Source: an uncultured Alphaproteobacteria bacterium | GTDB taxonomy: Bacteria > Pseudomonadota > Alphaproteobacteria > Rs-D84 > CACZYB01 | Assembly (NCBI GenBank): GCA_944392955.1 | Contig: CALXYK010000004.1 | Coordinates: 3,419-67,418, forward strand | Direction: 5' to 3' | Length of the DNA: 64,000 bases | In this document: piece after piece, positions 7,560 through 37,496 of the stretch | Layout of the letters: each line of letters starts with the position of its first letter | Numbering within the stretch: position 1 is the stretch's first letter | Notes under the pieces: generated by a model | The model's input: the letters and a program-made list of their open reading frames with translations, nothing else | The model's database searches: none | What the model was told of the DNA's origin: nothing | Program-made: the position numbers and the translations under genes

Positions 7560-7560
7560 T

Positions 7561-8395: not shown

Positions 8396-11187
<2,792 letters not shown>

Positions 11188-20020: not shown

Positions 20021-20310
20021 ATAAACATATACTAAAAATACATCTATGTCCTAATGCAAAAAAAAATAATATTTGCGGAATTTATAATAACGAATATTTA
20101 AAAATATCTATATCTTCTCCTCCTGTTGATGGAAAGGCAAACGAAGAACTGATAAAATTTCTAGCCCGTAAATTGGATATACCTAAATCAGATATAAAGA
20201 TAACAAAGGGACAAACAACCAGAAACAAAATAATAGAAATAAATACAGACAATAATATAGAAAAAAACTTAAACAAAATTTGGTGCACCCAAGAGGATTC
20301 AAACCCCTGA
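20017..20310 (+). CDS. YggU-family protein (DUF167)
   Basis: DUF167 core ([25 protein letters not shown]). The ORF 3' end runs about 30 nt into the opposite-strand tRNA, so its true stop is uncertain. Confidence 0.55.
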
Positions 20311-20357
20311 CCTTTGGCTCCGGATGCCAACGCTCTATTCAACTGAGCTATGGGTGC
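20281..20357 (-). tRNA. tRNA-Arg (anticodon CCG)
   Basis: Manual cloverleaf. Acceptor stem GCACCCA/TGGGTGC. D-stem GCTC/GAGC. Anticodon stem TTGGC/GCCAA with loop ATCCGGA. T-loop TTTGAAT (U instead of C at position 56). 3' CCA encoded. Confidence 0.8.
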
Positions 20358-20473: not shown

Positions 20474-21286
20474 ATGACAAATAATGCAAAAGTAATAGTT
20501 GTTGGTAATGAAAAAGGTGGTAGTGGAAAATCTACACTTTCCATACATTTGGCAATTGCATACCTTTATTCCGGATATAAGGTCGCAACAATAGATTTAG
20601 ATGGAAGACAAGGCACACTCACCCATTACATAGAAAACAGGGTAAGATATGCAAATGAAAAGAACCTTGATTTGCCTATGCCTGAACATCTTGTTGTTAC
20701 ACCTTCACAATTTTCCAATAGACGAAGTTCTAATGAAGATGAGGAACAACTTGATGCCGAAATCAAGGATTTAAAAACAGAATACGATATAATAATAATT
20801 GATACACCCGGAACATATAGTCATCTTTCCAATGCGGGACATAAAAATGCGGATATTTTAATTACTCCGGTAAATGATAGTTTAGTTGACATTGATGTCA
20901 TTGCAAACATTGACCCTAATACAAAGGAAATAATATCAGAATCTCAGTATACTAATAACATAAGAAATATTCAAAAAATAAGAAAAGATATAGGAAAGGA
21001 TGATCTATTTTGGATTGTATTAAGAAACCGAATTTCACACATAGACGCAAAAAATAAACGAGAAGTTGACAACATTTTAAAAAAATTACAAACACAACTT
21101 GGTTTTACATATATTTCAGGAATAGGTGAAAGAGTTGTATACCGCGAAATGTTTTTAAAGGGACTAACTATACTTGATCTTTTAAAAACAGGAACAGACG
21201 AAATTACAATATCACACATCGCAGCTAAAAATGAACTTTTAACAGTTCTAAATACAATAAATATCCCTTTAAAACAAGATATATAA
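20474..21286 (+). CDS. mipZ: ParA-family ATPase MipZ (division-site positioning, FtsZ-polymerisation inhibitor)
   Basis: Motifs VIVVGNEKGGSGKST, LDLDGRQGT, IDTPG, TPVNDSLVDID, VLRNR and VVYREMF. These match the Caulobacter MipZ pattern as I recall it. Confidence 0.75.
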   Translation: MTNNAKVIVVGNEKGGSGKSTLSIHLAIAYLYSGYKVATIDLDGRQGTLTHYIENRVRYANEKNLDLPMPEHLVVTPSQFSNRRSSNEDEEQLDAEIKDLKTEYDIIIIDTPGTYSHLSNAGHKNADILITPVNDSLVDIDVIANIDPNTKEIISESQYTNNIRNIQKIRKDIGKDDLFWIVLRNRISHIDAKNKREVDNILKKLQTQLGFTYISGIGERVVYREMFLKGLTILDLLKTGTDEITISHIAAKNELLTVLNTINIPLKQDI

Positions 21287-21294: not shown

Positions 21295-21567
21295 TTATTT
21301 CCAACCTTTTAACAAATCGTTTATTATTTTTAACGGATCTACACCTATTGCCTTTGCAATATCAGCAAATTCAATAACATCTAATCTTCTTTCTCCGTTT
21401 TCATACTTTGAAACATAAGATTGATTTTTATGCAATTTATCTGCAACTTCTTTTTGTGTAAGTCCAGATTCCTTTCTTGCCAATAAAAGCAACTTTAAAA
21501 ATAAATTATAATTTTCTGTAAAAACTGATTTAGTCATCTTCTCCTCCATATATTTCATTTTAAGCAA
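21295..21567 (-). CDS. XRE/Cro-like helix-turn-helix transcriptional regulator
   Basis: Helix-turn-helix motif LTQKEVADKLHKNQSYVSKYENGER. 90-aa ORF; the real start may be an internal Met. Confidence 0.6.
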   Translation of the reverse strand: MLKMKYMEEKMTKSVFTENYNLFLKLLLLARKESGLTQKEVADKLHKNQSYVSKYENGERRLDVIEFADIAKAIGVDPLKIINDLLKGWK

Positions 21568-22010: not shown

Positions 22011-22679
22011 TTAAATAAATATCTGTCCTGTTAATTTAACACTTTTAGGAAAAGCCCTAACACTGCTTTTACCACTTAAATAGATATGACCATCAACAAG
22101 GTTGTCCCCCATAAATGTCACACCATCAGCATTCACAAGATAAATATTACCAAGAACCTTAAAATTCTTAGGTATTTTTAAAAAATCTATATCTTTAATA
22201 TAAACATCGCCCAGGATACAAGTATTAGATTTAAGATAATCCAAATGCCCCTTTGAAAAAACAATATCACCTTTAACTAACAAAGTCTTAGGAGAGATAT
22301 TTTTATTTTTCAAAACAAAAGATTCTTGTGAAGTTAAAACCTGTCTTGAACAATTCTTGCCGGCACAAACTATACGATAATCATCTAAATATTTATCCCC
22401 TACATACTTTTTTAATCCCATAGTCATAGGAATATCTCTTTTAAACTCCTTACCTTCGTCATAAATATAATTCAATTTAGTAGGACGATTAAAAGGCACA
22501 AAAATATTTTCAGGTTTTTCCACCTTATTTGCAACAATATAGGCCTTTACCTTAAATTTTTCAGAATCAATAGCCGACCTGTTCAATGATTTAAGGAACA
22601 AAATACCCCCCACAATCATTAAAAACAATCCAGTAAAAACAAGCACATATCTTTTTTGTTCTGTATTCATAAGAGTCAC
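22011..22679 (-). CDS. hypothetical membrane-anchored protein with beta-rich repeat C-terminal region
   Basis: N-terminal TM helix (VLVFTGLFLMIVGGILFL). The C-terminal half contains short G-D/N-I/V-hydrophobic repeats (GDIVFSKG, GDVYIKD, GNIYLVN, GHIYLSG). Confidence 0.45.
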   Translation of the reverse strand: MTLMNTEQKRYVLVFTGLFLMIVGGILFLKSLNRSAIDSEKFKVKAYIVANKVEKPENIFVPFNRPTKLNYIYDEGKEFKRDIPMTMGLKKYVGDKYLDDYRIVCAGKNCSRQVLTSQESFVLKNKNISPKTLLVKGDIVFSKGHLDYLKSNTCILGDVYIKDIDFLKIPKNFKVLGNIYLVNADGVTFMGDNLVDGHIYLSGKSSVRAFPKSVKLTGQIFI

Positions 22680-22750: not shown

Positions 22751-23632
22751 TCATATTTTAAAATCAGTCTTAACACGAAAACTTCCCAATGGGTAATTCC
22801 TGATTGGAAATATATTTTTCTTAGACGTCAATGGCATTTTTATATGCTCGCTTAGTATGGCACCCGCCACACTATCCAAACCATCATCATAACCGTTCAC
22901 ATTATCAAAATTCCATTCCGAAAACTCAGAAATAAACGGAGTTTGCCTTACCTTTTCATTAACAAATAAATATCCTGCCGAGGTAATAACATCAAAAGCA
23001 TCTAAAATCCTTAGATTTTTTGAAACTTTTGAATGTTTAGGAATAATTGTTGTAAAAATATTCATCTTTAATAATTCAGACTTCAAAAATTCTGGTAAAA
23101 ATTTACCAATTCCATTACTTTCCACATAAACAACAGGAATATGATTCCTTTGTAAAAAAGCCCCAACCTTACAACATTGTTCATGAGCAGATTGAACCTC
23201 TTGCCCATCAGAATGATAAAGGTATTCTATATCATGCAGGTAAAATTTCCCTTCTGTATCAATAAAGACGACAGAAATTACACTTCTATCACCATCTTTT
23301 GAACCATACGCAGGATCCCACCAGCAAGATACTTTTTCTATTTTTTTGCCTGCTATTGAAAAATTCAACAAATGATTCCTTTCTTCCATTAACAAATCAT
23401 CTGAATAAAAGGAAAGTTTTGACACATCAAACCTTCCCTCTTTCATATCAACAGGAATAAGCATCATTTGCGAAGAAAACTTTTTCAACCCAACCGTTTT
23501 TTTTAATTTTTCTATTTTTTCAATAGGAAATTTTTCATTCCAAACTGGTTTTCCATTTTCCATAACAGGAATTTTCAAAACATCATATCCAAAAAGAAAT
23601 GCTTCCTGATTTTCATCATCATTCATCTGCAT
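22751..23632 (-). CDS. phage large terminase, C-terminal nuclease-domain fragment (T7 gp19-like)
   Basis: RNase-H-like nuclease motifs: CWWDPAYGSKDGDRSVISVV, VVYVESNGIGK, NGYDDGLDSVAGA. These match the T7 gp19 C-terminal half as I recall it. No ATPase domain. An in-frame TAA lies immediately before the ATG. Confidence 0.8.
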   Translation of the reverse strand: MQMNDDENQEAFLFGYDVLKIPVMENGKPVWNEKFPIEKIEKLKKTVGLKKFSSQMMLIPVDMKEGRFDVSKLSFYSDDLLMEERNHLLNFSIAGKKIEKVSCWWDPAYGSKDGDRSVISVVFIDTEGKFYLHDIEYLYHSDGQEVQSAHEQCCKVGAFLQRNHIPVVYVESNGIGKFLPEFLKSELLKMNIFTTIIPKHSKVSKNLRILDAFDVITSAGYLFVNEKVRQTPFISEFSEWNFDNVNGYDDGLDSVAGAILSEHIKMPLTSKKNIFPIRNYPLGSFRVKTDFKI

Positions 23633-25136
23633 TTACAATCAACCTTTCTGGAACAGCAAATGTTTTAGCCAACCACAAGGCAACTGCCTTTTTATCAACT
23701 ATTGCCAATGCTTCTTCTCCCAACTCTGATAAAGATTTTATCCAACCTAAAATATTTTCAGCATCTCTAACCGCCTGATTTCTAGCAAGAGGTGATTGAT
23801 ATTTCAAATCTACTTCATGGCCATTAACCATGATATCGGAAATTTCACCCCTACGTCTTAATATAGAAATTGCTCTTAAAATAACTGGTGTTAAAAATTC
23901 GGATTGTAATCTTCCATAGGTTGCTCCTAAAATTCTGCTCATTTGATTTGTTCTTTCTAAAACTTCTGTCGCAGTCATTTTAGTAGTAGAAAACGAAGAT
24001 AACTGATCTACCAATAAACTATGATTTATTTTTGCCCGTAAATCTGATAAAACTAATTGAGATACATCAAAATCCGCACCAGTCCTAAGTGGTGTAAGTC
24101 CACTAGATCCAACTGCCTTTGGAATTATAGTTCCCGGAGCAAGAGTAATATTAGAAATATTTAAAACCCCATCATCATCTGCTTGCCATACACCACTAAC
24201 TGCAATACTAGCATTTTTTAAAATCAACTCCACAACTTTATTCGCAGTTTTAATATCGGGCAATGCTTTCATCACTGGCGATCTTCCATATACTTCTGAT
24301 GGAATTTTCAACCACCTGAAACAAATAAACGGAGAATATGCAAAAACACCAGTTTTCAAAACAAACATTTCATTATTTGTTAAAAGTTTATCTGCATCAT
24401 TAACAAAAGCGACATAATTATAACCTTGTTGACCACTAGGTGTAATTCTTGGCAATACTGCTTCTATAACACAAATTTTTTCATCAGGTTTTTTAGAAAT
24501 AATATTCAGCTGTTTATCATCAAATTTAAAATTAGGAAATCTAAGTTTTAAATTTTCCAAAGTCAAAATTGATTTTCTAAAAACAGTATCTAATTTACCA
24601 TTAACATTTTCTTCTAATGCAATTTCATTCATAGGAATTGCTGTAAAATTAAATGCGGTTGTTTCACCAACGCTATTTTCCTCAAATAACATTACCGCTG
24701 TTCCAACAGTAATTAAATCTAAATAACATTGATGAGCCTCAACATAAAAATTAGACCTATCAAAATGAGATTGCAAAACTTTTTGAATATCATCTAATGC
24801 CTTAAATTTTTCTTGTTTATCCCCATTATCTTTATCACAAGCATCAACACCGAAACCCAAACCAAACCATTTTGACCAAGGCGGAGTAAGTTGAGCCAAT
24901 AAACTACCTGCTAATTGTTCCACACCAGATTCAGCAGTAGAATCAAAAATATCAACATTTTTCTTTTTACCATTGGAAATAGAAGTAAATAAACCACTTT
25001 TTTGAGGCAGTGCATAATCATAACATTCACTCCAATGATTTTCCCATTCGGCCCTTTTTTCCATGGCTTTCTGATATCTAGCATAGATTTTAAAAAGTTC
25101 TGTTTCATCAACAATATATTTATTATTTTCAATCAT
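23619..25136 (-). CDS. phage portal / head-to-tail connector protein (T7 gp8-like)
   Basis: 505 aa. The N-terminal pattern (YARYQKAMEKRAEWENHWSECYDYALPQ ... LAGSLLAQLTPPWSKWF) parallels T7 gp8 (YERLKNDRAPYETRAQNCAQYTIP ... LASKLMLALFPMQTWM) as I recall it. Confidence 0.75.
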   Translation of the reverse strand: MIENNKYIVDETELFKIYARYQKAMEKRAEWENHWSECYDYALPQKSGLFTSISNGKKKNVDIFDSTAESGVEQLAGSLLAQLTPPWSKWFGLGFGVDACDKDNGDKQEKFKALDDIQKVLQSHFDRSNFYVEAHQCYLDLITVGTAVMLFEENSVGETTAFNFTAIPMNEIALEENVNGKLDTVFRKSILTLENLKLRFPNFKFDDKQLNIISKKPDEKICVIEAVLPRITPSGQQGYNYVAFVNDADKLLTNNEMFVLKTGVFAYSPFICFRWLKIPSEVYGRSPVMKALPDIKTANKVVELILKNASIAVSGVWQADDDGVLNISNITLAPGTIIPKAVGSSGLTPLRTGADFDVSQLVLSDLRAKINHSLLVDQLSSFSTTKMTATEVLERTNQMSRILGATYGRLQSEFLTPVILRAISILRRRGEISDIMVNGHEVDLKYQSPLARNQAVRDAENILGWIKSLSELGEEALAIVDKKAVALWLAKTFAVPERLIVNADE

Positions 25137-25157: not shown

Positions 25158-25190
25158 ATTAAAAAAACTCCTAAGATTAACTTAGGAGTC
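25158..25190 (-). terminator. rho-independent terminator downstream of ftsZ
   Basis: On the minus strand: GACTCCTAAG-TTAAT-CTTAGGAGT followed by TTTTTTT. Confidence 0.55.
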
Positions 25191-25212: not shown

Positions 25213-26928
25213 TTAGTTATTATTCTTTTTAAATATTGCTGGAATTTCCAAAGTTTCTTCCATTTTTTTTATCATTTCCATCAAATCAGTCTGTTGACTT
25301 TCTCTTTTCTGTTCATCCAAACTTCCAGCCAAAAATACCACATTATCATCTTCTTTTTTTTCTTCTTTCTTAGAAATTGTGAAATCCAATTCTTTATCCA
25401 AAGATAACTTTACATCTTTATCACTACCAAAATTTTCTACATCATCAAAGAAATTATCTTCCTTTGATTCACCTAATAAATCAAAGAATGATGACAAAGA
25501 ACTTTTCTTTTTACCATTTCCACCACCATTGTCCGGAGGAGTTGGTTCATCATCATCATTATCTTCTTTTTTTGCAACCAAATCCATAGGTTCAGATTCG
25601 GAAATTTTTTGTGCTTCTCTATTTATAAAATCATCAATACTAGAAGGTGTATTTTGTTTTATAAAACTATCAAAGGAGTTTTCCTTTTCAAAATTTTCCA
25701 CTTCCTCCGTATTTTCAGAAAACAAAGCATCTGCTCCAAAATCACCTAAAACATTTTTTACATCTTTATCAAAAGTATCATCTTTAATAGGTAATGGTTT
25801 TTCCTCATCTTGACTATTTATATCATTATCAAACGAAGAAAAAGATGAGGTTGTTTTTTCAATACTATTATATGTATTAACATTTTCCTTCATACTGGGA
25901 AAAGTATTTAACTCATCTCTATGAATATTTTTTATTCCTACATTTTCAGATAATCCAGTTGCAATTATCGCGACCTTTAATGAATCGTCCATAGATACAT
26001 CAAAACAAGTTCCAAGATAGAAATTTGTATCATCACTATCAATAGAAGCCCTAATAGTATTCATAACTTCGGCAGGTTCGTCCAAGGATAAATTTTCAGG
26101 ATTAGCCGTTATGTTCACAAGGACTGATTTTGCCCCCCTTATATCATTTCCTTGAAGCAAAGGATTTAACAAAACACCTTCTACTGCCTTTAATGCCCTA
26201 TTTTCGCCACGTTGAACCGAAGTTCCTATTAAAGTTCTACCACTTTTTTCCATTACCGCACGAATATCAGCAAAATCCAAATTTATTGTTCCAGGAATTC
26301 TTATCAAATCGGTAATATTTCTAACTCCGTCATAAAGGACATTATCAGAAATTTTAAACGCATTCAAAAAAGTCATCTGTTTATCAACAACATTATAAAG
26401 ATTCTGATTAGGCAAAACTATATAAGAGTCGACATTAGGAATTAAATTATCAATCGCATCTTTTGCAATTTTTTCCTTCTTTTTCCCCTCAAAATCAAAC
26501 GGCGTTGTTACAATAGCAACGGTTAAAATACCCTTTTCCTTTGCAATAGAGGCAATCACAGGCAATGCACCACTTCCTGTTCCCCCACCCATACCAGCAG
26601 TTAAAAATAAAATATTTGAATTTTTGATTAAATCAGCAATTTCACCACTTGATTCTTCTGCTGCCTTTTGACCTATTTCAGGTCTAGAACCGGCACCAAA
26701 ACCTTTCGTAGTTTGCTTTCCCAGTTGGATTTTTTTCGGCGACTTTGATTGTAATAATGATTGAGCATCAGTATTGGCAACAACAAACTCTACACCATCA
26801 ATTCCCTGCTCTATCATATTATTAACAGCATTACAACCAGCACCACCAACCCCCATTACCATAATTTTTGGAATAAAATTTTGAATCTCATCATCAAGAG
26901 ATTTATAACCAAAATTTCCATCAAGCAT
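25213..26928 (-). CDS. ftsZ: cell division GTPase FtsZ
   Basis: Tubulin signature GGGTGSGA, GVGGAGCNAVN, T7 loop NLDFADI. Long disordered acidic linker. Conserved C-terminal FtsA-binding peptide (LEIPAIFKK). Start set at the Met preceded by AAGGGGGA. Confidence 0.95.
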   Translation of the reverse strand: MLDGNFGYKSLDDEIQNFIPKIMVMGVGGAGCNAVNNMIEQGIDGVEFVVANTDAQSLLQSKSPKKIQLGKQTTKGFGAGSRPEIGQKAAEESSGEIADLIKNSNILFLTAGMGGGTGSGALPVIASIAKEKGILTVAIVTTPFDFEGKKKEKIAKDAIDNLIPNVDSYIVLPNQNLYNVVDKQMTFLNAFKISDNVLYDGVRNITDLIRIPGTINLDFADIRAVMEKSGRTLIGTSVQRGENRALKAVEGVLLNPLLQGNDIRGAKSVLVNITANPENLSLDEPAEVMNTIRASIDSDDTNFYLGTCFDVSMDDSLKVAIIATGLSENVGIKNIHRDELNTFPSMKENVNTYNSIEKTTSSFSSFDNDINSQDEEKPLPIKDDTFDKDVKNVLGDFGADALFSENTEEVENFEKENSFDSFIKQNTPSSIDDFINREAQKISESEPMDLVAKKEDNDDDEPTPPDNGGGNGKKKSSLSSFFDLLGESKEDNFFDDVENFGSDKDVKLSLDKELDFTISKKEEKKEDDNVVFLAGSLDEQKRESQQTDLMEMIKKMEETLEIPAIFKKNNN

Positions 26929-27033
26929 TTTTTCCCCCTTTTGACTTCTTTCCTTAATTATATCATAAAAAAAGGTAAAAGTTAAGAGATAAAAACATAA
27001 AAACAAATAATTTTATTTTTTTAAGCAAAAAAA

Positions 27034-27486
27034 CTAAGAACCAACAAAATTGTCCAATGCCTTTTTGCATGCCTCCGAAGCATCTATCAACTTATTTATA
27101 TTAGAAAGAGCACCAGCAGACACACCAAGAGACAATACATTCGCACCTGTTGCAATACCAGAAGAAACCAAAGAAATAGTTCTATTTTTTTCTAGATTTT
27201 TCATATCATCAATGTCTATTTCTCCAGAACTTTTTGCTACATTATTAGCAGATAATGCAGTTGAAGTAGCAGATCCAGCCGTCGCAACAGCCGAAGTAAC
27301 ACCAGTTGTAATAGATTGAGCCTTCAAACTATTCAAAACAGATCCATCAAATTTACATGCAGAAATCACATCTGAAATATATGGTTCTTTCTTTCTTACA
27401 CTATCCGAAGATAATTTTGCCTCTGCACCAAAGGATAAAAAAGAAGCCGACACAACAAAAACTAAACTATAAGATAAAAACTTCAT
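27034..27486 (-). CDS. secreted Ala/Ser/Thr/Gly-rich protein
   Basis: Start at the Met with a GGAGG ribosome-binding site. Signal peptide MKFLSYSLVFVVSASFLSFGAEA. Low-complexity A/S/T/G segments. The C-terminal motif is similar to the C-terminus of the upstream 612-aa protein. Confidence 0.5.
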   Translation of the reverse strand: MKFLSYSLVFVVSASFLSFGAEAKLSSDSVRKKEPYISDVISACKFDGSVLNSLKAQSITTGVTSAVATAGSATSTALSANNVAKSSGEIDIDDMKNLEKNRTISLVSSGIATGANVLSLGVSAGALSNINKLIDASEACKKALDNFVGS

Positions 27487-27487
27487 T

Positions 27488-29326
27488 TTAATCCTCCATT
27501 CCACTAACTTCTGCATTATATGATGAATAAGCATTATTTAAGGTTCTAATACTATCTTCACATTGTTTTAAATTTGTTATTGCATCTTCTATCGTAGCAA
27601 GGGATACAAAACTTACAACAGATGCAGTTCCACTAGCAAGAGACGAAGCCGCACTTAACCCAACCTGCCATTTATCAAAATCTTTTGCTGAAGCCAAAGC
27701 TTTACCACTAGCATCTCTTAACTCATGTATTTTTGTTTTATTACTCTCTACTATTGCTTGTTTACTTGAGATAGATTCTAATTCTGCATTTTTTTGAGCT
27801 AAAAGTTCATTTTTATTTATTTTTTCGCTCTCTTTTTCTTGTTTAACCTCATTTTCAATTTGTCCTGGTTCAGATTTTTCAAGTTGGTCATTAACATCTT
27901 TTAATTTAATATTTAAATCCTCAATAACCTTGTCTATATTATCCATTTGGGACTTATAGTCATTACATTTATCAACATTTTCCTTTGCATCGTTTATTTT
28001 ATTATTTAACTCTTTTATTGTTTTTTCCTTCTCTTCCTTCTGGGATTTTAATTTGGAAATGGCACTCATTTTAGCTTCCTCTAATGCAGAATCTGTTTCA
28101 TTATTATCAGCATCCAATTCTCCCAAATCTTTCATAAGGACATCTATTGAATCATTAAGCCCCAATACCGCCTTTTTTGCATTTGCCAAACTTTCTTCAT
28201 TTGTTTTGTTGTCTGAAAGTTTATTTTCACAGGCTAAATTATTATAACTATTCTTAATAGTCGTTTGTTCTTTTTTTTGTTTTGCAATAACTTGCTCTAA
28301 AGCATCTTTTTCTGCTGTTAATTTAGTTTTTCTATCTTCTATTGTTCCATATTTAATAGTAGAAACTCCATTCAAATCTGTATTTTTTGATAAAATAATT
28401 TGTCCCTCTTCCAAATTTGATATATCACTATCAATAGACTCTATTTCTGTATTTAACTTAGCTACTTCTCTTTCTAACTTTTCTTTCTCCCCATCCAAAC
28501 CTTGACCTATACTTGTATTTTTAGTTCCAAGGCTCTTCTCTGCATCGTGATAATAAATTGCATCTTTTGTATTTTTAAGTGATAATGCACCAACAACTGT
28601 GCTACCTGTACTTAACACACTACCAACACCAGATGTCAAGGAAACCCCATAAGTTATTTGGGATTTAAGTTTTTCCATATCATTCACAAATGCACCACAT
28701 TTTTCTCGTGCAGTTTGAACTGCTGAATTTATTTTTTTCTCATATTCTGAAACATCAACAAAAATCTCGCTTTCCAAATACATAGAGGCGATTAAATTTC
28801 CCGCCCTTGTTACATAAAGTTTTCTTCTATCCGAAGATAATCCAGAGTTATCAACAACCGAACTAATCTGTGAATTTGTTCCATTTAACAAAGAAACCGA
28901 ATAACTATATTTAGGAAGCAAATCTACACATTTTATCTCCCCTTCCGCAGATACAACATCCATCGCCCCCGAAGAATCCATTCCAACCAATTTCATATAA
29001 GGACCGAAACAAAACTTTTCATCCAATTTAGCCGTTCCATTAGTATAATAATAATTATATACTGATGGTAATAACATAGTACTTAAACTATACGATTCAT
29101 CATAATATAATTTATCCAAATGCACCGAGTTTAAAAACCTTAACACAGATCCAGAAATATCCGAAGAATTAGAAGAGGAACTTGACGAAGTCGTACGTCC
29201 CGAAGATCTGCTATTTGGACTTCTACTGCCACCTGAATTAACTACACGAGCAGCGAACAATCCTCCATCTGAAAACAAATAAGATAAAAAGACCAATCCA
29301 CAAAGTAAATTAAACTTCTTTTTCAT
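27488..29326 (-). CDS. large secreted coiled-coil protein
   Basis: Signal peptide. Ser-rich low-complexity stretch. About 300 aa of Lys/Glu-rich heptad-like coiled coil. C-terminal A/S/T-rich domain. Confidence 0.55.
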   Translation of the reverse strand: MKKKFNLLCGLVFLSYLFSDGGLFAARVVNSGGSRSPNSRSSGRTTSSSSSSNSSDISGSVLRFLNSVHLDKLYYDESYSLSTMLLPSVYNYYYTNGTAKLDEKFCFGPYMKLVGMDSSGAMDVVSAEGEIKCVDLLPKYSYSVSLLNGTNSQISSVVDNSGLSSDRRKLYVTRAGNLIASMYLESEIFVDVSEYEKKINSAVQTAREKCGAFVNDMEKLKSQITYGVSLTSGVGSVLSTGSTVVGALSLKNTKDAIYYHDAEKSLGTKNTSIGQGLDGEKEKLEREVAKLNTEIESIDSDISNLEEGQIILSKNTDLNGVSTIKYGTIEDRKTKLTAEKDALEQVIAKQKKEQTTIKNSYNNLACENKLSDNKTNEESLANAKKAVLGLNDSIDVLMKDLGELDADNNETDSALEEAKMSAISKLKSQKEEKEKTIKELNNKINDAKENVDKCNDYKSQMDNIDKVIEDLNIKLKDVNDQLEKSEPGQIENEVKQEKESEKINKNELLAQKNAELESISSKQAIVESNKTKIHELRDASGKALASAKDFDKWQVGLSAASSLASGTASVVSFVSLATIEDAITNLKQCEDSIRTLNNAYSSYNAEVSGMED

Positions 29327-29454: not shown

Positions 29455-29531
29455 TGGCAAGGTAGCTCAGTCGGTAGAGCAAAGGACTGAAAATCCTTGT
29501 GTCGGCGGTTCGATTCCGCCCCTCGCCACCA
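29455..29531 (+). tRNA. tRNA-Phe (anticodon GAA); the 3' acceptor strand looks irregular
   Basis: Manual cloverleaf. D-arm GCTCAGTCGGTAGAGC. Anticodon stem AAGGA/TCCTT with loop CTGAAAA. T-arm GGCGG-TTCGATT-CCGCC. By my count the acceptor has an A4-C69 mismatch and one extra C between the T-stem and the 3' acceptor strand. Confidence 0.8.
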
Positions 29532-29538
29532 AAAAATC

Positions 29539-29570
29539 AACTCCTTACTTCAAATGTAAGGAGTTTTTTC
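29539..29570 (+). terminator. rho-independent terminator after tRNA-Phe
   Basis: Hairpin CTCCTTAC-TTCAAAT-GTAAGGAG followed by TTTTTT. Confidence 0.5.
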
Positions 29571-29584
29571 ATAAATACATTTTA

Positions 29585-29765
29585 AACATCTGGTTCGTAT
29601 ACTCGTATAACACGCTAAGCCAAAAAAAATCCCCTGTTGCGAGGAGAGAACACGAACGAAGTTGTTCTTAATGACGAGCGGTGTTAGCGAGGAATTTTAG
29701 AACATCTGGTTCGTATACTCGTATCACCCGCTAAGCCAAAAAAATCCCCTGTTGCGAGGAGAGAA
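29585..29765. repeat. two ~66-bp direct repeats (29585-29650 and 29701-29765), the second ending in a stem-loop
   Basis: The units read AACATCTGGTTCGTATACTCGTAT(A/C)AC(A/C)CGCTAAGCCAAAAAAA(A)TCCCCTGTTGCGAGGAGAGAA and differ at 3 positions. In the second unit CCCCTGTTGCG pairs with CGCAACAGGG at 29788-29797 around a GA-rich loop. Confidence 0.6.
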
Positions 29766-30134
29766 GGAGGAAAGGAGAGAAAAGGAACGCAACAGGGAAT
29801 AACTTTGAAAATAAATTTAAAAATATACTTAAATTCACTTCACATTCTCGATTCTTAATATACTCGACAAAAAAAGTCAAGCGATTCTTTTTTTGGCTAT
29901 TTTTTAAAGTGATTTAAAAAGCAAAAAAAACACTAAAATCAAATAGTTAAAAAAATGATTTTTTTTAATAAGAATCAATATTGTCTATAAAAATCTACTA
30001 TCTAAAAGAAGCAAAAACACGATTCTTTTAACACAAAAAAAGAATCGACTCCGAATCTTTTAAAACACAGTAAAGTTTTAGCAATTTAATTACCAAATAG
30101 CAAATAAAAAAACACATTTTTACAAAAAAAATAT

Positions 30135-30232
30135 CCCTTAAGTCGAGGAGAGAGAGAAAATAAGGAGGGAATGACTTAAGGGATCTTCGGTTTTCACCGA
30201 ATTTGCCGAAATGAGGGGTCGTCTCGGCAAAC
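30135..30232. other. cluster of three consecutive hairpins in non-coding DNA (candidate structured RNA or recombination site)
   Basis: CCCTTAAGTC-(28-nt GA-rich loop AGGAGAGAGAGAAAATAAGGAGGGAAT)-GACTTAAGGG; TTCGG-TTTTCA-CCGAA; TTTGCCGA-AATGAGGGGTCG-TCTCGGCAAA. Confidence 0.4.
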
Positions 30233-30351
30233 TTTATATTCGTATTAACGAATTGCCTTCATTATACAAATCATTTATACTTTGTCAAGATATTTTTGCA
30301 AAAATATTTTTTCTGTATAAAACAATATAAAAATTCCCATAAAAACAACAA

Positions 30352-30951
30352 CTAAACTTTATATATTGTATCAATAGTATGTGGCGTCCCTATAAAAATT
30401 TGCATACCATCTGGAACTAAAATAAAATTGTATTCCAGTAATCTCTCCCTTAAATCAAGCCTTTTTTGATATGTATCACAATTTTTGGGAACCTCTACAT
30501 CATCAAAAATTATAACATCCGCCCTACTTCCCGTCGCATTAGACAATAAGCCAACTGCTAACATAGAGGGATCCCTTAACTCCTTACTTCTCACAACGGT
30601 AAAACTACCAGACGCCCAATCTGATTTTTTCTTTGGCCTAATATCTTCCATTAAAGGATTAACCTCTATAATACGTTTTACATTTTTAACCATTTTTCTC
30701 GCTAACATAGTATCAGCAGCCACCACCAAAATTCTTGTATTAGGATTTTTATACAAAAGCCAAGCACAAAATATTCCAACAATAGTTGACTTCCCACTAC
30801 TTCGAAAAGCCATCAACAAGCCCCTTTTTTTATCTGATAAATAGATACTTTCAAGCCATTTTGCAATTTTAATATGATGTTCTGGCGTATCTATTTCTTG
30901 TAATTTATTCCAAGCCAACAAAAACTTTTCAAAATTTAACTTTCTTTTCAT
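30352..30951 (-). CDS. phage large terminase, N-terminal ATPase-domain fragment (T7 gp19-like)
   Basis: Walker A LMAFRSSGKST. Walker B ADVIIFDDVE. Coupling motif IFIGTPHT. Nearly colinear with the T7 gp19 N-terminal region as I recall it (LQAFRGIGKSF...RADIIIADDVEIP...YLGTPQTE). The ORF stops right after the ATPase domain. Confidence 0.85.
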   Translation of the reverse strand: MKRKLNFEKFLLAWNKLQEIDTPEHHIKIAKWLESIYLSDKKRGLLMAFRSSGKSTIVGIFCAWLLYKNPNTRILVVAADTMLARKMVKNVKRIIEVNPLMEDIRPKKKSDWASGSFTVVRSKELRDPSMLAVGLLSNATGSRADVIIFDDVEVPKNCDTYQKRLDLRERLLEYNFILVPDGMQIFIGTPHTIDTIYKV

Positions 30952-30952
30952 T

Positions 30953-31393
30953 TTATAAAATATTCAAACTATAAAAAGCAGAATCCAACAATTTCAAAGC
31001 ATCTTTGTCTTTTGAAAGTAAATTTTTGTTTTTTTTGTAATTATAATTCAATTCATTTGTTTTTAAATCTAAATCTGAAAAATAATCATTATTTTTAATA
31101 TCTTCATCTACTTCTTTTTCTATATTACCAAGCAAAACAGCCGAAGAACCATCTGTAAAATCTAAACCATTTGCAGCCATAGTAGCCTTTTTCGTAGCAA
31201 GTTTAGATTTTAATAAATCTGTTTTTTCCTGCTCATATACTTGTTGTTTCTTTTTAATTTCAGCATCTGCTAATGCTTTCTCCTGTTTGGCCATTTCTGT
31301 CGCTGCCTTTTTAGCATCATTAGATTCTTTTATATCCATAACAGTTTTTGCAACATTTGCAACACCAGCGACAACACCTGTACTTACACCCAT
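30953..31393 (-). CDS. hypothetical coiled-coil protein (possible small terminase or internal virion protein)
   Basis: 146 aa. Lys/Glu/Ala coiled-coil segment. Its stop codon is 1 nt from the terminase ATG. Function not assignable. Confidence 0.35.
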   Translation of the reverse strand: MGVSTGVVAGVANVAKTVMDIKESNDAKKAATEMAKQEKALADAEIKKKQQVYEQEKTDLLKSKLATKKATMAANGLDFTDGSSAVLLGNIEKEVDEDIKNNDYFSDLDLKTNELNYNYKKNKNLLSKDKDALKLLDSAFYSLNIL

Positions 31394-31403: not shown

Positions 31404-33311
31404 CTACTTTATTATATCTATTAACATTGAAAAACTTAGAATTTTTAATTTATAAGGTTTTGAACTTTGTATTTTAAACAAAGGAATTTCATAATTTTTT
31501 ACAAATCCTTTACCTCGTATTCTTAAATCCCCCGTATAATAAGGCAAACTTTCATCAAAACAATTTCCACTATCAAAATTCAAAAAGACAATAGTCCTAA
31601 GCCCAGAACCTGTATCAATTTGAACTAATGGAGTATCCATAACCCTTAATGTCAATTCCAACAATCTAACAGACTTTGGAATATAACTCCAACTTATAAA
31701 TGTAGGTAATGGACAATATATATGAGTAAAAGGCAAACCAATTATAATATTTTTAGAAGTCTTAGGTAATATTATTTTATTATCTACCACTTCTAAATCA
31801 TATATATAATCATCTGCATTAACTACAACCTTTTTACCATTTAAAAATGAAAGATTTTCTACCATATCAATACCTGTTTCTGATGTAATTTTTTTAGAAC
31901 AATCACAAGAAACATCTTCATCAAAAACTTCTAAGAAATAATTACTTCCTCGTTGAACTACAACATAAACTTTATCAACCAAAACAGACAAGGAAAGTAT
32001 TTTACCATCTGTTTCATATCTTACCCAAGCATTTATATTATATGTTTTATTTGTTAACAATACAGCCAAAGTTCCATCTTCTTGAACAACATATAACATT
32101 CTTTTTTTGACATTATAATCCTGCTCAATCGGACTATTTAATAAGTGATTAGATAACAAAATTAAATCTTGCGAAGAATAATTTTCACTTAAATCACCAT
32201 AAAAAAACTCTCTTATCTCTTTTTTGTTTCTAGCCACAAAAATAGTAGAACCTTCTACTAATTTAGGGGCTATATATCTATCAGAAATAGACCCTATCTT
32301 AGTTTGTTGAGAAACTATTATATTAGACGGAGTAAGAGGACTTCCCGTAATCATCCATTCAGAGTCCGAAGTAAACACCTGTAAATGCCTACCTGAAAAT
32401 ACTGATAATATTTCATTAACCTTATCAGAAAATATATCAAACTCTATTGATTCATCATCAAGTCCGGTTCCCAAATCAAAATTCATAAAATCACCAGTCT
32501 TAGAAAACCACAACCTATTGCTTAAACTTTTTGAACCACCAATTACCAATCTATTTTGGTGAAACGCAATACTTTTAGGATAACCACGGCGTTGTGAAAA
32601 ACTCTGTTCTTGCCAATTTGCATCAGCATTAACATCGGATAAATTTGATTTTACCTCTGCATTTGCAATAGTTTCAGATTCAATAGAAGTAATAAGAACT
32701 TCTCCACCATCTAATGTAATCCTAATATTAACCCAATTATCAGAGAACAAATTTTTACTTGCTGTAATTTGAATATTACCTGTTTTTGCAGACGGAGTAA
32801 GAGTTATACCTTCTGTATCATCAAATCTATTAAATGGTTGACAAGAATAACCATAAGTTGCATTTGTAGCATATATCCAAGACGAAATTGACCAAGTTTC
32901 ATTTAACAAATCGTATTTTAATATTTGAGGTTCAATATCTGGATGAGCCAGATATAACTCACTACCTTTCTGCGACCATCTTAAATTTTTTAAATCAGCA
33001 ATCGCATACGGCGAAGTCAAAGAAGACACTTTTTCTTCATTTTCATCATAAATATCAATCGTATTATTTCCAAAAAACAAAATAAAAAGTTTTTCACTGG
33101 AATATTCAAAAGAAATTATTTTACCTTCTGTTGACAAAGTATCAACATATCTCAGACCTTCCCTTCTTTCTATTCCACCCGTAGCAATCACATTCATATT
33201 TGTAATTGTCATAGCCCCACTTTTGTAAGCGGTTGAATTTCCCCTACCAAATAAATTTCTTGATAATTCTCCAAACGAAAAGTTAGACATAGTAATAGTT
33301 TGCTTTACCAT
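31404..33311 (-). CDS. tail tubular protein B-like (T7 gp12-like)
   Basis: 635 aa. Positioned after a gp11-like gene. The mid-region pattern (ILSVFSGRHLQVFTSDSEWMITGSPLT...IFVARNK) parallels T7 gp12 (LFSEELLIWSDEAQFVLTASGTLT...VYFASPR) as I recall it. Confidence 0.6.
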   Translation of the reverse strand: MVKQTITMSNFSFGELSRNLFGRGNSTAYKSGAMTITNMNVIATGGIERREGLRYVDTLSTEGKIISFEYSSEKLFILFFGNNTIDIYDENEEKVSSLTSPYAIADLKNLRWSQKGSELYLAHPDIEPQILKYDLLNETWSISSWIYATNATYGYSCQPFNRFDDTEGITLTPSAKTGNIQITASKNLFSDNWVNIRITLDGGEVLITSIESETIANAEVKSNLSDVNADANWQEQSFSQRRGYPKSIAFHQNRLVIGGSKSLSNRLWFSKTGDFMNFDLGTGLDDESIEFDIFSDKVNEILSVFSGRHLQVFTSDSEWMITGSPLTPSNIIVSQQTKIGSISDRYIAPKLVEGSTIFVARNKKEIREFFYGDLSENYSSQDLILLSNHLLNSPIEQDYNVKKRMLYVVQEDGTLAVLLTNKTYNINAWVRYETDGKILSLSVLVDKVYVVVQRGSNYFLEVFDEDVSCDCSKKITSETGIDMVENLSFLNGKKVVVNADDYIYDLEVVDNKIILPKTSKNIIIGLPFTHIYCPLPTFISWSYIPKSVRLLELTLRVMDTPLVQIDTGSGLRTIVFLNFDSGNCFDESLPYYTGDLRIRGKGFVKNYEIPLFKIQSSKPYKLKILSFSMLIDIIK

Positions 33312-33318: not shown

Positions 33319-33873
33319 CTACTTTCTTATATCCACAAGTGGGAAATTTACAAAAGATTTATTAGTTTCTTGCATACTATCAATAGATTTTGCCTCTCTT
33401 ATTTCCGAATTAAATAATTTATAAAATAAAGAATATTTACTAGTATCATTTAACAAAGAAATAGAAAGTTCAGCCGCCATCAGATAAACAAATGCAGAAA
33501 TAAACACAGGTGTAAAATATTCTTCGTTCACATTTGCAATATAATCCAAATACACCTCTTCATCATTACAATAAAGATAATTTCCTAAAATTTTATAAGG
33601 CGAATTAGAAGAAATTTTTAATGCTCGCAAAAAATCACCTGGCAAAGCATAAGAATAGCCATACTCACTTTTACTATCTTCAACAACTCTATTTAATTTC
33701 TGAGAAGCAGTCGCAAAACTCCACGAAAATATAGAAAGCAATTTATATTTTAGCGTAGAATATAAACTTCCACATATTTCAGCTTCCGGAGTTCCCTCAT
33801 CAAAAGACACAATTGCATTAGCCCCAATTTTGTTAAGGGCTTTGGAACATAAATCAATACTTGAAAAACTCAT
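33319..33873 (-). CDS. tail tubular protein A-like (T7 gp11-like)
   Basis: 184 aa. The N-terminal pattern ALNKIGANAIVSFDEGTPEAEICGSLY parallels T7 gp11 [30 protein letters not shown] as I recall it. Located between the capsid gene and gp12-like, as in T7. Confidence 0.55.
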   Translation of the reverse strand: MSFSSIDLCSKALNKIGANAIVSFDEGTPEAEICGSLYSTLKYKLLSIFSWSFATASQKLNRVVEDSKSEYGYSYALPGDFLRALKISSNSPYKILGNYLYCNDEEVYLDYIANVNEEYFTPVFISAFVYLMAAELSISLLNDTSKYSLFYKLFNSEIREAKSIDSMQETNKSFVNFPLVDIRK

Positions 33874-33931: not shown

Positions 33932-34189
33932 TTAAGATGCTGGTGAAATAATATCAGAAACCACTACTACACCAGAAGTAATAGAACTTACAACAAATAT
34001 ACTTGTTGTCAAAGTTCCATCTATATCCATAGAACTAACAATCAAATCGCCAACATTAAAAATATTAGCAACAGAATTAAAATAATTTTGACCAGTAACA
34101 ACAGTTTTCTCATCATCTGTTTTATAATGCCACAAAGTAAAACCATTTGAATAAGCTAACACAGATAAATTTTTAGAATTCATACTCAT
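33932..34189 (-). CDS. hypothetical small protein
   Basis: 85-aa ORF between the capsid and gp11-like genes. No motifs. Confidence 0.3.
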   Translation of the reverse strand: MSMNSKNLSVLAYSNGFTLWHYKTDDEKTVVTGQNYFNSVANIFNVGDLIVSSMDIDGTLTTSIFVVSSITSGVVVVSDIISPAS

Positions 34190-34217: not shown

Positions 34218-35048
34218 TTAAGCAATAGTTGCATCATCATCACAAAGTATTTTAACAATACCAGTATCGTCTATAAGTTTCGCTCCTTGGCTCATACAAT
34301 TAGAAATAAAATGAGCTGCCCTTTCACCATGCCAGGTAATATCAGTTTTCACATCACAACCAGACGCATGTCCAACAGCATTTTTATGATAAATAAAACA
34401 ACTTCTTACACCTTCATTGCAAGGAAGAGCATTATGCAAAATCCAATTTATACCCATCCATTTTCTAGATTCTGTTCCTTTAAGTAATGGATAATTATCA
34501 CCAACATAATCGGCATTTGAAAATTCCTCTAAACTTAAAAGTTCATTCCATTGATGAACACCAACAACACCAAATCTTTGACCATCATCAGGCACATCAT
34601 TATTGTTAAGTATTTCCAAAGCTTGAAATATCTTTGATTTAGTAAAACCTACACCAGAAGTATCAACAGAATTAGTTGCATTGTTAAGTTCATTAATAAT
34701 AAGTTCATCACTCTTTCTACCTAAGGCATAAGCGCCAGCAGAAGCAACAACTCTTCTTTCATCTACATTTGTTTTTAATTCATCAAGTTCATCAACCCAA
34801 TCTCCTGCATAGAAATCAGACAACACACATTCAACAGGAGTATGATCTAAATTCATAACAGGAACAAGTCCGTGTCTAGCTTTTGTACTTGCAAGACCTT
34901 TACCTATTTTTTGAAAGGTAGTTGAGGTTCCTCTTACATCACTTTTTGTTCTAACAGTAGAACGTAATTTTGTTCCCATCTGTTGAAATGCAAGATGAAC
35001 TTCTGCCTCAAATTGTTTTATAAATACTTTATCAATAGAAACTGACAT
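34218..35048 (-). CDS. phage major capsid protein (T7 gp10-like, short form)
   Basis: 276 aa. The N-terminal segment (VFIKQFEAEVHLAFQQMGTKLRSTVRTKS...TFQKIG) and C-terminal segment (HKNAVGHASG) parallel T7 gp10A as I recall it. Follows the scaffold gene as in T7. Confidence 0.7.
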   Translation of the reverse strand: MSVSIDKVFIKQFEAEVHLAFQQMGTKLRSTVRTKSDVRGTSTTFQKIGKGLASTKARHGLVPVMNLDHTPVECVLSDFYAGDWVDELDELKTNVDERRVVASAGAYALGRKSDELIINELNNATNSVDTSGVGFTKSKIFQALEILNNNDVPDDGQRFGVVGVHQWNELLSLEEFSNADYVGDNYPLLKGTESRKWMGINWILHNALPCNEGVRSCFIYHKNAVGHASGCDVKTDITWHGERAAHFISNCMSQGAKLIDDTGIVKILCDDDATIA

Positions 35049-36097: not shown

Positions 36098-36685
36098 TTA
36101 TTCATCACCATATAAAAATTTAAATCCATCATCAACTTTTTTAATGAAATCTTTATCTCCATCTCTCCAATACTTTGGATCCTTCATCATTTCTTTTAAT
36201 TTTTTCTCTGTAATACCACATTGAGATTCACCAGATTTTGCCATAACTTTCGGCTCATTGGATGTCATCATATTATACAAAGCAAGCACACCATAAAACG
36301 AAGAATTCAAAGAATTATAAATTTCCTGAGGAACATTTTTTTCTGCCCACAAAGAAATTTGACGAGAAATTTCATCAAATCTTTCTTCTCCACCAAAATA
36401 ATTTTCAAGTTTTGAAAGTTCTCTGTAAGCACGAAATTCCTCTATTACTTCTTGAATCTTTGGAATCATAATTTCAGCAGCAAGGTCATAAACCAATTGG
36501 ACCTGAGCATTTGTGAAACCTGCTTCTTTTAAACGTTTATTGACATTTTGATCAACTTGTAAAAATTTATTATGAAGCACTATTTGATAGTCTTTATCAG
36601 CACCATCAGTTTTCAAAGCCAAATCTAAAACATCTGTGTTTTCACGATCAGTATTTTTATTTTGATCAACTTTTTGATTATACAT
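36098..36685 (-). CDS. phage scaffolding protein (T7 gp9-like)
   Basis: The C-terminus (ERFDEISRQISLW...KLKEMMKDPKYWRDGDKDFIKKVDDGF) parallels the T7 gp9 C-terminus (ERFDALYNHLETH...EMIKAMSDPRYRTDANYRRQVEQKVIDSNF) as I recall it. Located upstream of the capsid gene. Confidence 0.6.
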   Translation of the reverse strand: MYNQKVDQNKNTDRENTDVLDLALKTDGADKDYQIVLHNKFLQVDQNVNKRLKEAGFTNAQVQLVYDLAAEIMIPKIQEVIEEFRAYRELSKLENYFGGEERFDEISRQISLWAEKNVPQEIYNSLNSSFYGVLALYNMMTSNEPKVMAKSGESQCGITEKKLKEMMKDPKYWRDGDKDFIKKVDDGFKFLYGDE

Positions 36686-37049: not shown

Positions 37050-37496
37050 TTACATACAAATATCATAGAAATAAAAATCATCTATAATATATTTCGGAGA
37101 AACATTTTTAGCCCAAAAAGGACATTTCTCCTTTTTATGAAACTCAATTGCATCAAATTTTTTACTTTCTACATTATTTAAAGACAAAACATCTCCTGCA
37201 ACCTTTAAACAAGTTTTAAAGTAATCAGAATTTGTATCAATTGAATCCATATTTTTTAAATTCTTCCATGCAGGGAAAATATTAACAGATGTCAAAAGTT
37301 TTACTATATCAGGAAATGTTTCTGATATTTCCACTTCATAAAAAAATCTATTAACAATAGTCATCGCAACAGATTTTAACAAAAGATTCGAAGCATCTTT
37401 TTCCAGAGAATATAAACTTTTTGCTAAAATAAATTTGTTAATATTGGAATTTATTTTCAATTTTTTCAAAAGCTTTTCTCTATTTTCAATAAACAT
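37050..37496 (-). CDS. hypothetical protein
   Basis: 148-aa ORF. No motifs. Confidence 0.3.
   Translation of the reverse strand: MFIENREKLLKKLKINSNINKFILAKSLYSLEKDASNLLLKSVAMTIVNRFFYEVEISETFPDIVKLLTSVNIFPAWKNLKNMDSIDTNSDYFKTCLKVAGDVLSLNNVESKKFDAIEFHKKEKCPFWAKNVSPKYIIDDFYFYDICM

Follow-up and report, generated by a model that had tools for sequence, protein, structure and literature searches.

ftsZ lies between two arms of a phage-derived gene cluster

We analysed a 64,000-nucleotide (nt) stretch of low-GC (about 30%) alphaproteobacterial DNA (contig CALXYK010000004.1, hereafter the window) in which the cell division gene ftsZ stands apart from ftsQ-ftsA, with phage-derived genes on both sides of it. 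Its product of 571 amino acids (aa) has the Pfam tubulin/FtsZ GTPase and FtsZ_C domains, the GGGTGSGA motif, a long acidic linker and a C-terminus that reads ...EETLEIPAIFKKNNN. The terminal peptide EIPAIFKK (...EETLEIPAIFKK) is kept clade-wide and is similar to the D/EIPxFLR of outgroup proteins. Judged by its sequence, the protein thus has what is expected of the family: the GTPase signature, the C-terminal domain, the linker and a predicted anchor-binding peptide of the FtsA type. The gene is an ordinary cellular division gene, arranged as a self-contained unit of promoter, strong ribosome-binding site (RBS), coding sequence and terminator (Table 1).

The genes on either side of this unit form a left arm (37792 to 30352) and a right arm (25136 to 21295), both transcribed on the minus strand. 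In the direction of transcription, the left arm opens with the lysis-like pair p98 and p148, continues with the genes for the scaffold, the major capsid protein (two small open reading frames, ORFs, lie between these two), a small head-associated protein, the adaptor, the nozzle and an internal virion protein, and closes with the N-terminal piece of the large terminase subunit (TerL-N). The right arm begins with the portal gene, which is followed by the C-terminal piece of the terminase (TerL-C), by p222, by a small Bbp19-family gene and, at the cluster edge, by the gene for an XRE-type helix-turn-helix (HTH) regulator. Next to it lies the host gene mipZ, a synteny seen in most loci of the clade (the B clade, below) that reach past the right arm. 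A third piece, the detached head of the cluster with the genes c2, c10 and c3', sits 30 kb off.

Profile matches place these genes in the head-tail module of a T7-supergroup podovirus, with a PF12236 portal, a T7-type scaffold, a predicted HK97-fold capsid protein, a gp11-like adaptor and a gp12-like nozzle. Pfam or PHROG scans of 52 ORFs of the window gave no integrase, excisionase or replication gene, and the window holds no partial copy of tRNA-Phe that could be an att remnant. Head, tail, packaging, lysis and regulator genes are all that was found, in three places, and the cluster occurs in all relatives sampled, which is not the picture of a prophage. The original prediction, made from the letters of the window, had already named most of these features, and all that it named were borne out at the positions given: the canonical ftsZ with its RBS and dedicated terminator, the portal and the terminase nuclease half on one side of it and two secreted-type ORFs and tRNA-Phe on the other, mipZ beyond, an ABC-like gene in the ftsZ slot behind ftsQ-ftsA, and a terminase split around ftsZ.

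Table 1. Positions of the features discussed, in window coordinates
Feature	Position	Strand	Evidence and remarks
ABC permease/ATPase fusion	4462-6300	-	Pfam; occupies the slot after ftsA
ftsA	6306-7559	-	Pfam
ftsQ	7561-8301	-	Pfam
tRNA-Arg(CCG)	20281-20357		beyond mipZ
mipZ, host gene, conserved right neighbour	20474-21286	+	PF09140 3.6e-91, residues 6-265; full-length MipZ
XRE-type HTH regulator, right cluster edge	21295-21567	-	PHROG transcriptional regulators; Pfam HTH_3 on orthologues
Bbp19-family small phage protein	21686-22003	-	PF25181 on orthologues; PHROG_5977; true start probably near 21964
p222, predicted membrane-anchored beta-solenoid protein	22011-22679	-	own strong promoter 22729-22702, terminator 21992-21970
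TerL-C: ATPase lid subdomain and RNase H-like nuclease	22751-23632	-	PHROG_38 positions 468-713, 3.3e-38
Portal, T7-type head-tail connector, first right-arm gene	23619-25136	-	PF12236 1.1e-124; 72-84% identical in relatives
Intrinsic terminator after ftsZ	25158-25190	-	10-bp GC-containing hairpin and T-run; -13.9 kcal/mol; 24 nt before the portal start codon
ftsZ, canonical cellular, 571 aa	25213-26928	-	Tubulin/FtsZ GTPase PF00091 1.6e-48; FtsZ_C PF12327 2.8e-20
Shine-Dalgarno of ftsZ, AAGGGGGA	26934-26941	-	read from sequence; 5 nt 5' of ATG
ftsZ promoter: -35 TTAACT, 17 nt, extended -10 TATGATATAAT	26957-26985	-	promoter scan
Two fast-evolving secreted-protein genes (27034-27534 and 27488-29326)	27034-29326	-	variable cargo between tRNA-Phe and ftsZ
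tRNA-Phe(GAA), divergent from ftsZ in the ancestral pair	29456-29531	+	tRNA search
Conserved non-coding stretch: promoter and three sRNA-like hairpin units	29540-30300	-	between TerL-N and tRNA-Phe
TerL-N, ATPase core, 199 aa, last left-arm gene	30352-30951	-	PHROG_38 positions 270-458, 1.6e-45
Internal virion protein	30953-31393	-	PHROG_418 1.4e-10
Nozzle / tail tubular protein B	31404-33311	-	PHROG_376 2.5e-115; Pfam Phage_nozzle on the L005 orthologue
Adaptor / tail tubular protein A	33319-33873	-	PHROG_394 2.3e-41
Small head-associated protein	33932-34189	-	PHROG_18004; behind the capsid gene in every element, as in pelagiphage Hodr
Major capsid protein	34218-35048	-	PHROG_3437 3.7e-74; Pfam Phage_capsid_2 on orthologues
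Scaffold, T7 capsid assembly protein family	36098-36685	-	PF05396 2.3e-8
p148 (cell-wall hydrolase-like) and p98, lysis-like pair, first left-arm genes	37050-37792	-	promoter TTGACA-17-TATAGT 37908-37880
Detached head: c2 55479-55859 (-), c10 55838-56218 (-), c3' 56385-56624 (+)	55479-56624	both	30 kb off

The terminase is encoded in two pieces

TerL, which elsewhere joins an ATPase and a nuclease in a single polypeptide, is here encoded by two genes 6.7 kb apart. We aligned the pieces from six split lineages with seven unsplit orthologues (490-530 aa). TerL-N ends just past motif III (GTPHT.DTIYKV), and TerL-C starts at the lid subdomain. The Walker A (GKST), Walker B (DDVE) and motif III (GTPH) residues and the nuclease motifs WWDP and HDDGLD are kept in the six split and the seven unsplit proteins. 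Both pieces retain their catalytic residues, and the two-piece terminase would on paper be catalytically intact. When 1.8 billion representative proteins were searched, most of the close relatives covering TerL-N in full were 450-600 aa long, which indicates that free-standing N-terminal halves are at best rare; the few relatives of ~190-220 aa in the same search were indistinguishable from fragments.

The arrangement is conserved among gut relatives and evolves with the host

FtsZ homologues 42-72% identical were available from independent assemblies of the rumen, the deer rectum and the guts of humans and termites (loci of relatives bear L numbers below). Wherever the contig was long enough, ftsZ was followed by the portal gene, TerL-C, p222 and Bbp19, and in most loci it was preceded by the arm that runs from the capsid gene to TerL-N. 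A scan with a portal profile over one genome per GTDB species gave 13 species-level representatives with the order TerL-N / ftsZ / portal-TerL-C ("type B"). In the deep branches L087 and L027, ftsZ follows TerL-N after about 50 nt and is itself followed after 94-198 nt by the portal gene, and several other lineages carry 1.3-5 kb of variable cargo between TerL-N and ftsZ. In the window this cargo is the pair of secreted-protein genes, which have signal-peptide-like N-termini (judged by eye only), evolve at a ratio of nonsynonymous to synonymous divergence (dN/dS) of 0.43-0.64, match no Pfam or PHROG family and are absent from L087 and L027; in L093 it is a Schlafen/AlbA_2-domain gene, possibly related to defence. 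From these comparisons the arrangement is judged to be old and to have been fixed before the gut clade radiated, and not to be a recent insertion into one lineage.

The phage-derived genes diverged in step with the host. Pairwise portal distances correlated with those of the FtsZ core (r = 0.91), a value reached in none of 5000 Mantel permutations, and the portal tree reproduced the FtsZ tree, including the position of a hydrothermal relative (L054, described below) as sister of type B. In unsaturated pairs, synonymous divergence (dS) of the phage genes (0.32-0.46 and 0.76-1.29) matched that of ftsZ and mipZ (0.35-0.43 and 0.55-0.68). The dN/dS values of these pairs were also of the host kind: 0.034-0.069 for the portal, 0.10-0.12 for TerL-C, 0.10-0.12 for p222 and 0.10-0.11 for Bbp19, compared to 0.06-0.10 for FtsZ and 0.05-0.07 for MipZ. 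Base composition has been ameliorated to that of the host, with GC and GC3 of 0.297 and 0.203 in the element genes and 0.307 and 0.206 in the rest of the window. Taken together, these measures show that the cluster is vertically inherited, as gene transfer agents (GTAs) are, and stands under host-like purifying selection.

These rates bear directly on the idea that the cluster is a decaying, functionless cryptic prophage, kept only because it is wedged round an essential gene. Some losses would agree with it: the fibre gene, the S24 domain of the c3 repressor and c13 have been lost or truncated, and TerL is interrupted in Arboricoccus pini. However, dN/dS stays at 0.03-0.16 over dS of 0.3-1.9, and no stops or frameshifts were seen in at least 13 lineages, whereas neutral decay over such divergence would have erased the ORFs. 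We regard decay as very improbable.

tRNA-Phe appears to be an insertion hotspot in the clade. In L093 (7480-7800), a partial copy of the gene (its 5' half) lies about 170 nt from the complete gene, and upstream of the partial copy, where the left arm otherwise sits, are the Schlafen/AlbA_2-domain gene and two large ORFs. Since tRNA genes are classic integration sites and tRNA-Phe flanks the left arm, one could picture an active temperate podovirus that integrates repeatedly at tRNA-Phe beside ftsZ, with the partial copy and the island in L093 as one of its traces. Such a phage is hardly compatible with what was found, namely the lack of integrase, excisionase, replication genes and att repeats, phage genes on both sides of ftsZ with a third piece 30 kb away, a split terminase, dS identical to that of host genes, and congruent trees. 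We consider it every bit as improbable as decay.

ftsZ left ftsQ-ftsA before the phage genes arrived

In the canonical division and cell wall (dcw) cluster, ftsZ lies directly downstream of ftsA. FtsQ, FtsA and FtsZ are all present and canonical in the window, as they are there, but an ABC transporter gene follows ftsA, and ftsZ, 19 kb away from ftsQ-ftsA, is monocistronic and sits beside tRNA-Phe. The order ftsQ-ftsA-ABC without ftsZ was also found in four related contigs. Solitary ftsZ genes are known in Rickettsia. FtsA and FtsQ of the window are 56-59% identical to their orthologues in L140-L143, far below the neighbouring ABC transporter (73-78%), LigA (75-77%) and Obg (88-90%), which suggests that early divisome proteins evolve unusually fast in this lineage.

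More distant relatives (L089 and L090) have the canonical murB-ftsQ-ftsA-ftsZ order. The telling locus is L092, the next branch on the FtsZ tree outside type B and L054. Here tRNA-Phe (minus strand) is followed after about 150 nt by ftsZ, ftsA does not precede ftsZ, and no phage-derived gene lies within 10 kb of it. The extended -10 promoter of the window gene recurs in L092 (ATGTTATAAT), where an intrinsic terminator also follows ftsZ. Because a relative free of phage genes near ftsZ already has the tRNA-Phe/ftsZ pair away from ftsA, ftsZ left ftsQ-ftsA before the phage genes came, and the RBS and terminator are the inheritance of a free-standing ftsZ unit rather than a response to phage neighbours. 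In 13 loci, among them L054 and L092, tRNA-Phe is found upstream of ftsZ.

L054 (hydrothermal metagenome-assembled genome, MAG, SZUA-605; 3479-11798) is the sister of type B on both the FtsZ and the portal tree and possibly represents an intermediate arrangement. Its gene order is ruvB, p222, two small ORFs, a TPR gene (-), tRNA-Phe (-) and ftsZ, followed by a gene for a VgrG3-C-like peptidoglycan hydrolase, a 145-aa ORF, the portal gene, Bbp19 and relA (-); the other cluster genes are not on the contig.

The signals around ftsZ are also conserved. Most type B lineages have kept a promoter of the form TTAAC-17-TaTGnTATAAT before ftsZ; in the deepest lineages (L019, L087 and L027) and in L054, its recognisable part is the extended -10 TGnTATAAT only. 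A hairpin and T-run follow ftsZ in 13 of the 13 lineages examined, with stem sequences that differ by lineage. CtrA, DnaA and GANTC boxes were looked for upstream of ftsZ as well, and showed no consistent pattern across loci.

These comparisons change how the neighbourhood of ftsZ is explained. The original prediction had proposed that the rearrangement that split the terminase also relocated ftsZ, which the L092 locus contradicts. Nor was the event recent or confined to one lineage, given the same order in relatives down to 42% FtsZ identity and phage genes that co-diverge with the host. Its other proposal, integration of phage DNA immediately beside ftsZ, fits better, but what lies there is a domesticated, inherited cluster in which no integrase or att repeat was found. 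It had further reasoned that phage-free relatives with the same ftsA-ABC...ftsZ arrangement would make the position of ftsZ ancestral and unrelated to the phage element. L092 supports this as far as the detachment goes, in that the solitary ftsZ predates the phage genes.

Unsplit elements occur across Alphaproteobacteria

Portals 47-55% identical were found in Geminicoccaceae, Micavibrio-like MAGs, Rhodospirillales, Magnetovibrio and other gut lineages, in elements that in general have an unsplit terminase (loci L020-L088). Two carriers are cultured: Benzoatithermus flavus (L059), with an intact TerL of 533 aa, and Arboricoccus pini (L067), in which TerL is interrupted (170 + 410 aa). In the common order (type A), an S24 repressor gene on the opposite strand is followed by c10, c2, in some cases c13, the portal gene, Bbp19, scaffold, capsid, small head protein, adaptor, nozzle, internal protein, in some cases a fibre gene, TerL and hydrolase. 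A circularly permuted form with TerL first was also found. To get from type A to the order in the window, at least two rearrangement steps are needed.

The unsplit elements are about 11.5 kb long (for example L022 5042-16590 and L046 8602-20328) and contain no integrase or replication genes. They abut housekeeping genes, which are prfB and yhdP on one side and esterase, solute-binding protein and mlaC genes on the other, or cobalamin genes, or purC-purS-alkA-nadK-pyrE, and these flanks are constant within each host clade. In the portal phylogeny, the elements group in one tight clade with host-coherent subclades, and a long branch separates them from the pelagiphage Hodr. In IMG/VR, portals about 50% identical occurred on contigs of 4-19 kb only, and those of 33-43 kb phage genomes reached at most 36%. 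We found neither this arrangement nor a podovirus-type GTA in Alphaproteobacteria described in the literature, and by gene content and phylogeny the unsplit elements look like an undescribed GTA-like family.

Several genes of the window cluster have another place in type A. Bbp19 directly follows the portal gene in unsplit elements, and c10, c2 and the repressor gene lie immediately before the portal gene or TerL there. The repressor of unsplit elements is 206-240 aa long with a peptidase domain; c3' is a 79-aa, HTH-only remnant of it. The same shortened c10-c2-c3' locus was found in a rumen MAG, beside SPOR-tatA-ftsK and mscS.

A probably domesticated cluster enclosing a solitary ftsZ unit

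The reading we favour, with a probability of roughly 65%, is that a domesticated, GTA-like podovirus cluster encloses a tRNA-Phe/ftsZ unit that was already solitary, with ftsZ as an insulated passenger. The cluster looks like a new kind of GTA-like element rather than a recent prophage insertion. A solitary tRNA-Phe/ftsZ unit existed in an ancestor with no phage genes beside it and was enclosed by the two podovirus arms before the gut clade radiated, with the third piece lying 30 kb away. The original integration may plausibly have taken place at tRNA-Phe, which in the window has its 3' end towards the left arm. The cluster would still assemble capsids and package DNA, the two TerL pieces reassembling non-covalently. 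The ftsZ promoter would keep ftsZ constitutively expressed, and the terminator would shield the portal gene and TerL-C from ftsZ transcription. Transcription would then enter the right arm from upstream only, through read-through or anti-termination. The adjacency itself may be a frozen rearrangement, possibly aided by the fact that a deletion would remove an essential gene.

Several observations weigh against this reading. The sequences are MAGs or metagenomes, and the cluster is described here from its genes. No second ftsZ was found in the 64-kb window or beside ftsA in four related contigs, which cover part of the genome. L091, which falls inside the clade on the FtsZ tree, has lexA-recA-ftsZ and is a possible exception to the conserved arrangement; its contig breaks off in a poly-G artefact 300 nt past ftsZ. 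The remaining points concern the transcription of the right arm and the completeness of the particle, and each of them leads to a rival explanation.

With regard to transcription, the ftsZ terminator ends only 10-25 nt before the RBS of the portal gene in every lineage, which leaves no room for a separate promoter, and the promoter scan gave no sigma-70-like promoter between the two. This raises the possibility that ftsZ was kept in the cluster by functional coupling, its transcription being wired to that of the phage genes through regulated read-through of the terminator or through late transcription of the left arm that continues across ftsZ and would link division to particle production, with the nearness of mipZ as part of the same bond. 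The very short spacers between TerL-N and ftsZ and between ftsZ and the portal gene in the deep lineages would suit such coupling, as would the conserved order of ftsZ, four phage-derived genes and mipZ. On the other hand, the promoter and terminator, already present in the phage-free L092, need no phage explanation; the upstream spacer has in several lineages taken up 1.3-5 kb of unrelated cargo, which speaks against a need for ftsZ to be transcribed together with the left arm; and mipZ is not near ftsZ in L092 or L054. We think functional coupling unlikely.

With regard to the particle, no small terminase was identified, and the best-placed candidate, c2, is modelled as a papain-like hydrolase (His35, Cys36 and Cys99 are invariant). 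In L005 (7357-8079), L007, L015 and L087, the gap between the internal virion protein gene and TerL-N holds a gene for a protein of 240 aa whose N-terminal domain is of the T7 gp17 tail-fibre type; this gene is not in the window, where this gap is 30951-30953, nor in L001 and L009, and particles of the window sub-lineage might accordingly be non-adsorbing or non-functional. The large internal core proteins, as in Hodr, are absent from the window cluster. It is conceivable, then, that the cluster was co-opted for a role other than DNA transfer (as a shell of protein, for secretion or lysis, or in defence against related phages), that only part of its genes would be needed and that the split in TerL marks the loss of packaging. 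The loss of the fibre gene in the window sub-lineage, the missing small terminase and large ejection proteins, and the cutting of the repressor to its HTH part all lean that way. Against it, the portal, both TerL pieces, scaffold, capsid, adaptor and nozzle are intact and constrained in every lineage, and the retention of the ATPase and nuclease residues of TerL is hard to explain without DNA packaging. We give co-option slightly less weight than functional coupling.

We thus continue to prefer a domesticated cluster with ftsZ as its passenger. A wider version of the account, in which an ancient, undescribed and vertically inherited podovirus-type GTA family spans many Alphaproteobacteria (Geminicoccaceae, Micavibrio-like, Rhodospirillales and gut lineages) and in one gut clade works with a two-piece TerL and has ftsZ wired into its middle, the transcription of division and particle genes being coupled through the conserved terminator, is put forward tentatively, as possible rather than probable.

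Other features of the region

A conserved non-coding stretch lies between TerL-N and tRNA-Phe. At the DNA level it is 71-90% identical over 170-600 nt among lineages that share only 57-72% identity in FtsZ. It is opened by a perfect TTGACA-16-TATAAT promoter (30288-30261) and consists of three hairpin and T-run units with large loops that are CU-rich and resemble anti-Shine-Dalgarno sequences. The first unit (30118-30254) has a folding energy of -42.7 kcal/mol (z = -6.5). Six lineages share its loop AUUCCCUCCUUAUUU..UCUCUCUCCUC unchanged, and compensatory changes were seen at four pairs. Rfam gave three tRNAs only over the whole window at gathering thresholds, and a permissive scan of 29500-30360 gave nothing credible. 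The stretch probably encodes a family of regulatory small RNAs (sRNAs).

Outside the clade (26 protein clusters), p222 was found only in L054, as a neighbour of ruvB. Possibly it is a gene of host type that entered the cluster between TerL-C and Bbp19. The protein has an N-terminal membrane helix and a C-terminal part that is confidently modelled as a beta-solenoid. Kinship with MinC or bactofilins was considered and dropped, as the fold matches in the PDB were insignificant.

Immediately beyond the left arm are two genes whose position is not conserved in L005 or L007: one on the minus strand (37950-38456) for a 168-aa protein with an OmpR/PhoB-type winged-helix DNA-binding domain, and one on the plus strand (38538-39164) for a TraT-like lipoprotein. 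Further on, unannotated ORFs of 364, 456 and 628 aa at 46840-51505 flank tRNA-Arg(CCT) (48113-48189) and match no Pfam family; a hunt for fibre or core genes among them and the two secreted proteins gave LysM-type PHROG hits only.

Implications

If our reading is correct, these elements are a second family of domesticated phage particles in Alphaproteobacteria, podovirus-type and independent of the GTA of Rhodobacter capsulatus (RcGTA), with members in gut, soil and marine bacteria. Its unsplit form would be open to direct test in the two cultured species, Benzoatithermus flavus and Arboricoccus pini. The two-piece TerL would then be a natural experiment on the packaging motor, the ATPase core and the lid with the nuclease having been kept as separate genes under long selection, and it bears on how the ATPase and nuclease activities are coupled. 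Phage-derived operons would durably enclose an essential division gene that is insulated through a promoter and a terminator of its own, an example of how rearrangement in host-associated bacteria can freeze odd gene neighbourhoods. A practical caution is that core genes flanked by phage genes should not be read as recent prophage insertions or as viral contigs. For the biology of ftsZ alone, the result is modest, ftsZ being unremarkable in itself and already detached from ftsA before it had phage neighbours; for phage domestication and the terminase, it is a good lead.

Comparison with known systems

The nearest cultured phage is the Pelagibacter podophage EXVC031P 'Hodr', with 45% identity in the capsid, 35% in the portal and 39% in Bbp19. 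Hodr shares the p85-like small head protein, the adaptor and the nozzle, in the order of the unsplit elements. It is a real 34-kb phage with replication genes and internal proteins of 783 and 1247 aa that the elements lack, and its terminase has no detectable similarity to the element TerL. Portals of HTVC010P-type pelagiphages are 31-33% identical. Kinship with Bordetella phage BPP-1, suggested by the Pfam name Bbp19, had no BLAST support, the pelagiphages being nearer.

An order-wide prophage of Sphingomonadales has a fixed chromosomal position and host-like evolutionary rates, and is described as a stabilised prophage with cargo genes (PMC5381585). Compared by description only, it is like the window cluster in these respects; a split terminase and an embedded essential gene are not reported for it.

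FpGTA of Faecalibacterium prausnitzii (Firmicutes) is a GTA-like element from the gut that is probably podovirus-like, occupies two loci and was shown experimentally to package host DNA; the 2026 paper names it the first podovirus-like GTA-like element (PMC12946183). The window cluster likewise comes from the gut, is podovirus-like and lies at more than one locus, a likeness that is drawn from the description of FpGTA only.

A parallel in Alphaproteobacteria is the RcGTA type (Rhodobacter capsulatus, Caulobacter; Rhodogtaviriformidae), which is a phage-derived, vertically inherited cluster without replication genes (PMC9662315, PMC10883770). The two clusters have no sequence relationship. RcGTA is siphovirus-like, with HK97-type portal and capsid, whereas the window cluster is podovirus-type, with its PF12236 portal, T7-type scaffold, adaptor and nozzle, and, unlike RcGTA, it has a split terminase and an essential division gene inside and is described here from gene content. 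RcGTA relies on competence genes of the recipient. In organisation, the two are nevertheless alike: each is a head, tail and packaging cluster of ~12-15 kb, distributed over more than one locus among housekeeping genes, under purifying selection and free of replication and integration genes. A phage-derived structural cluster that is fixed in the host genome without replication or integration functions is what is expected of a GTA, and this is what we find around ftsZ.

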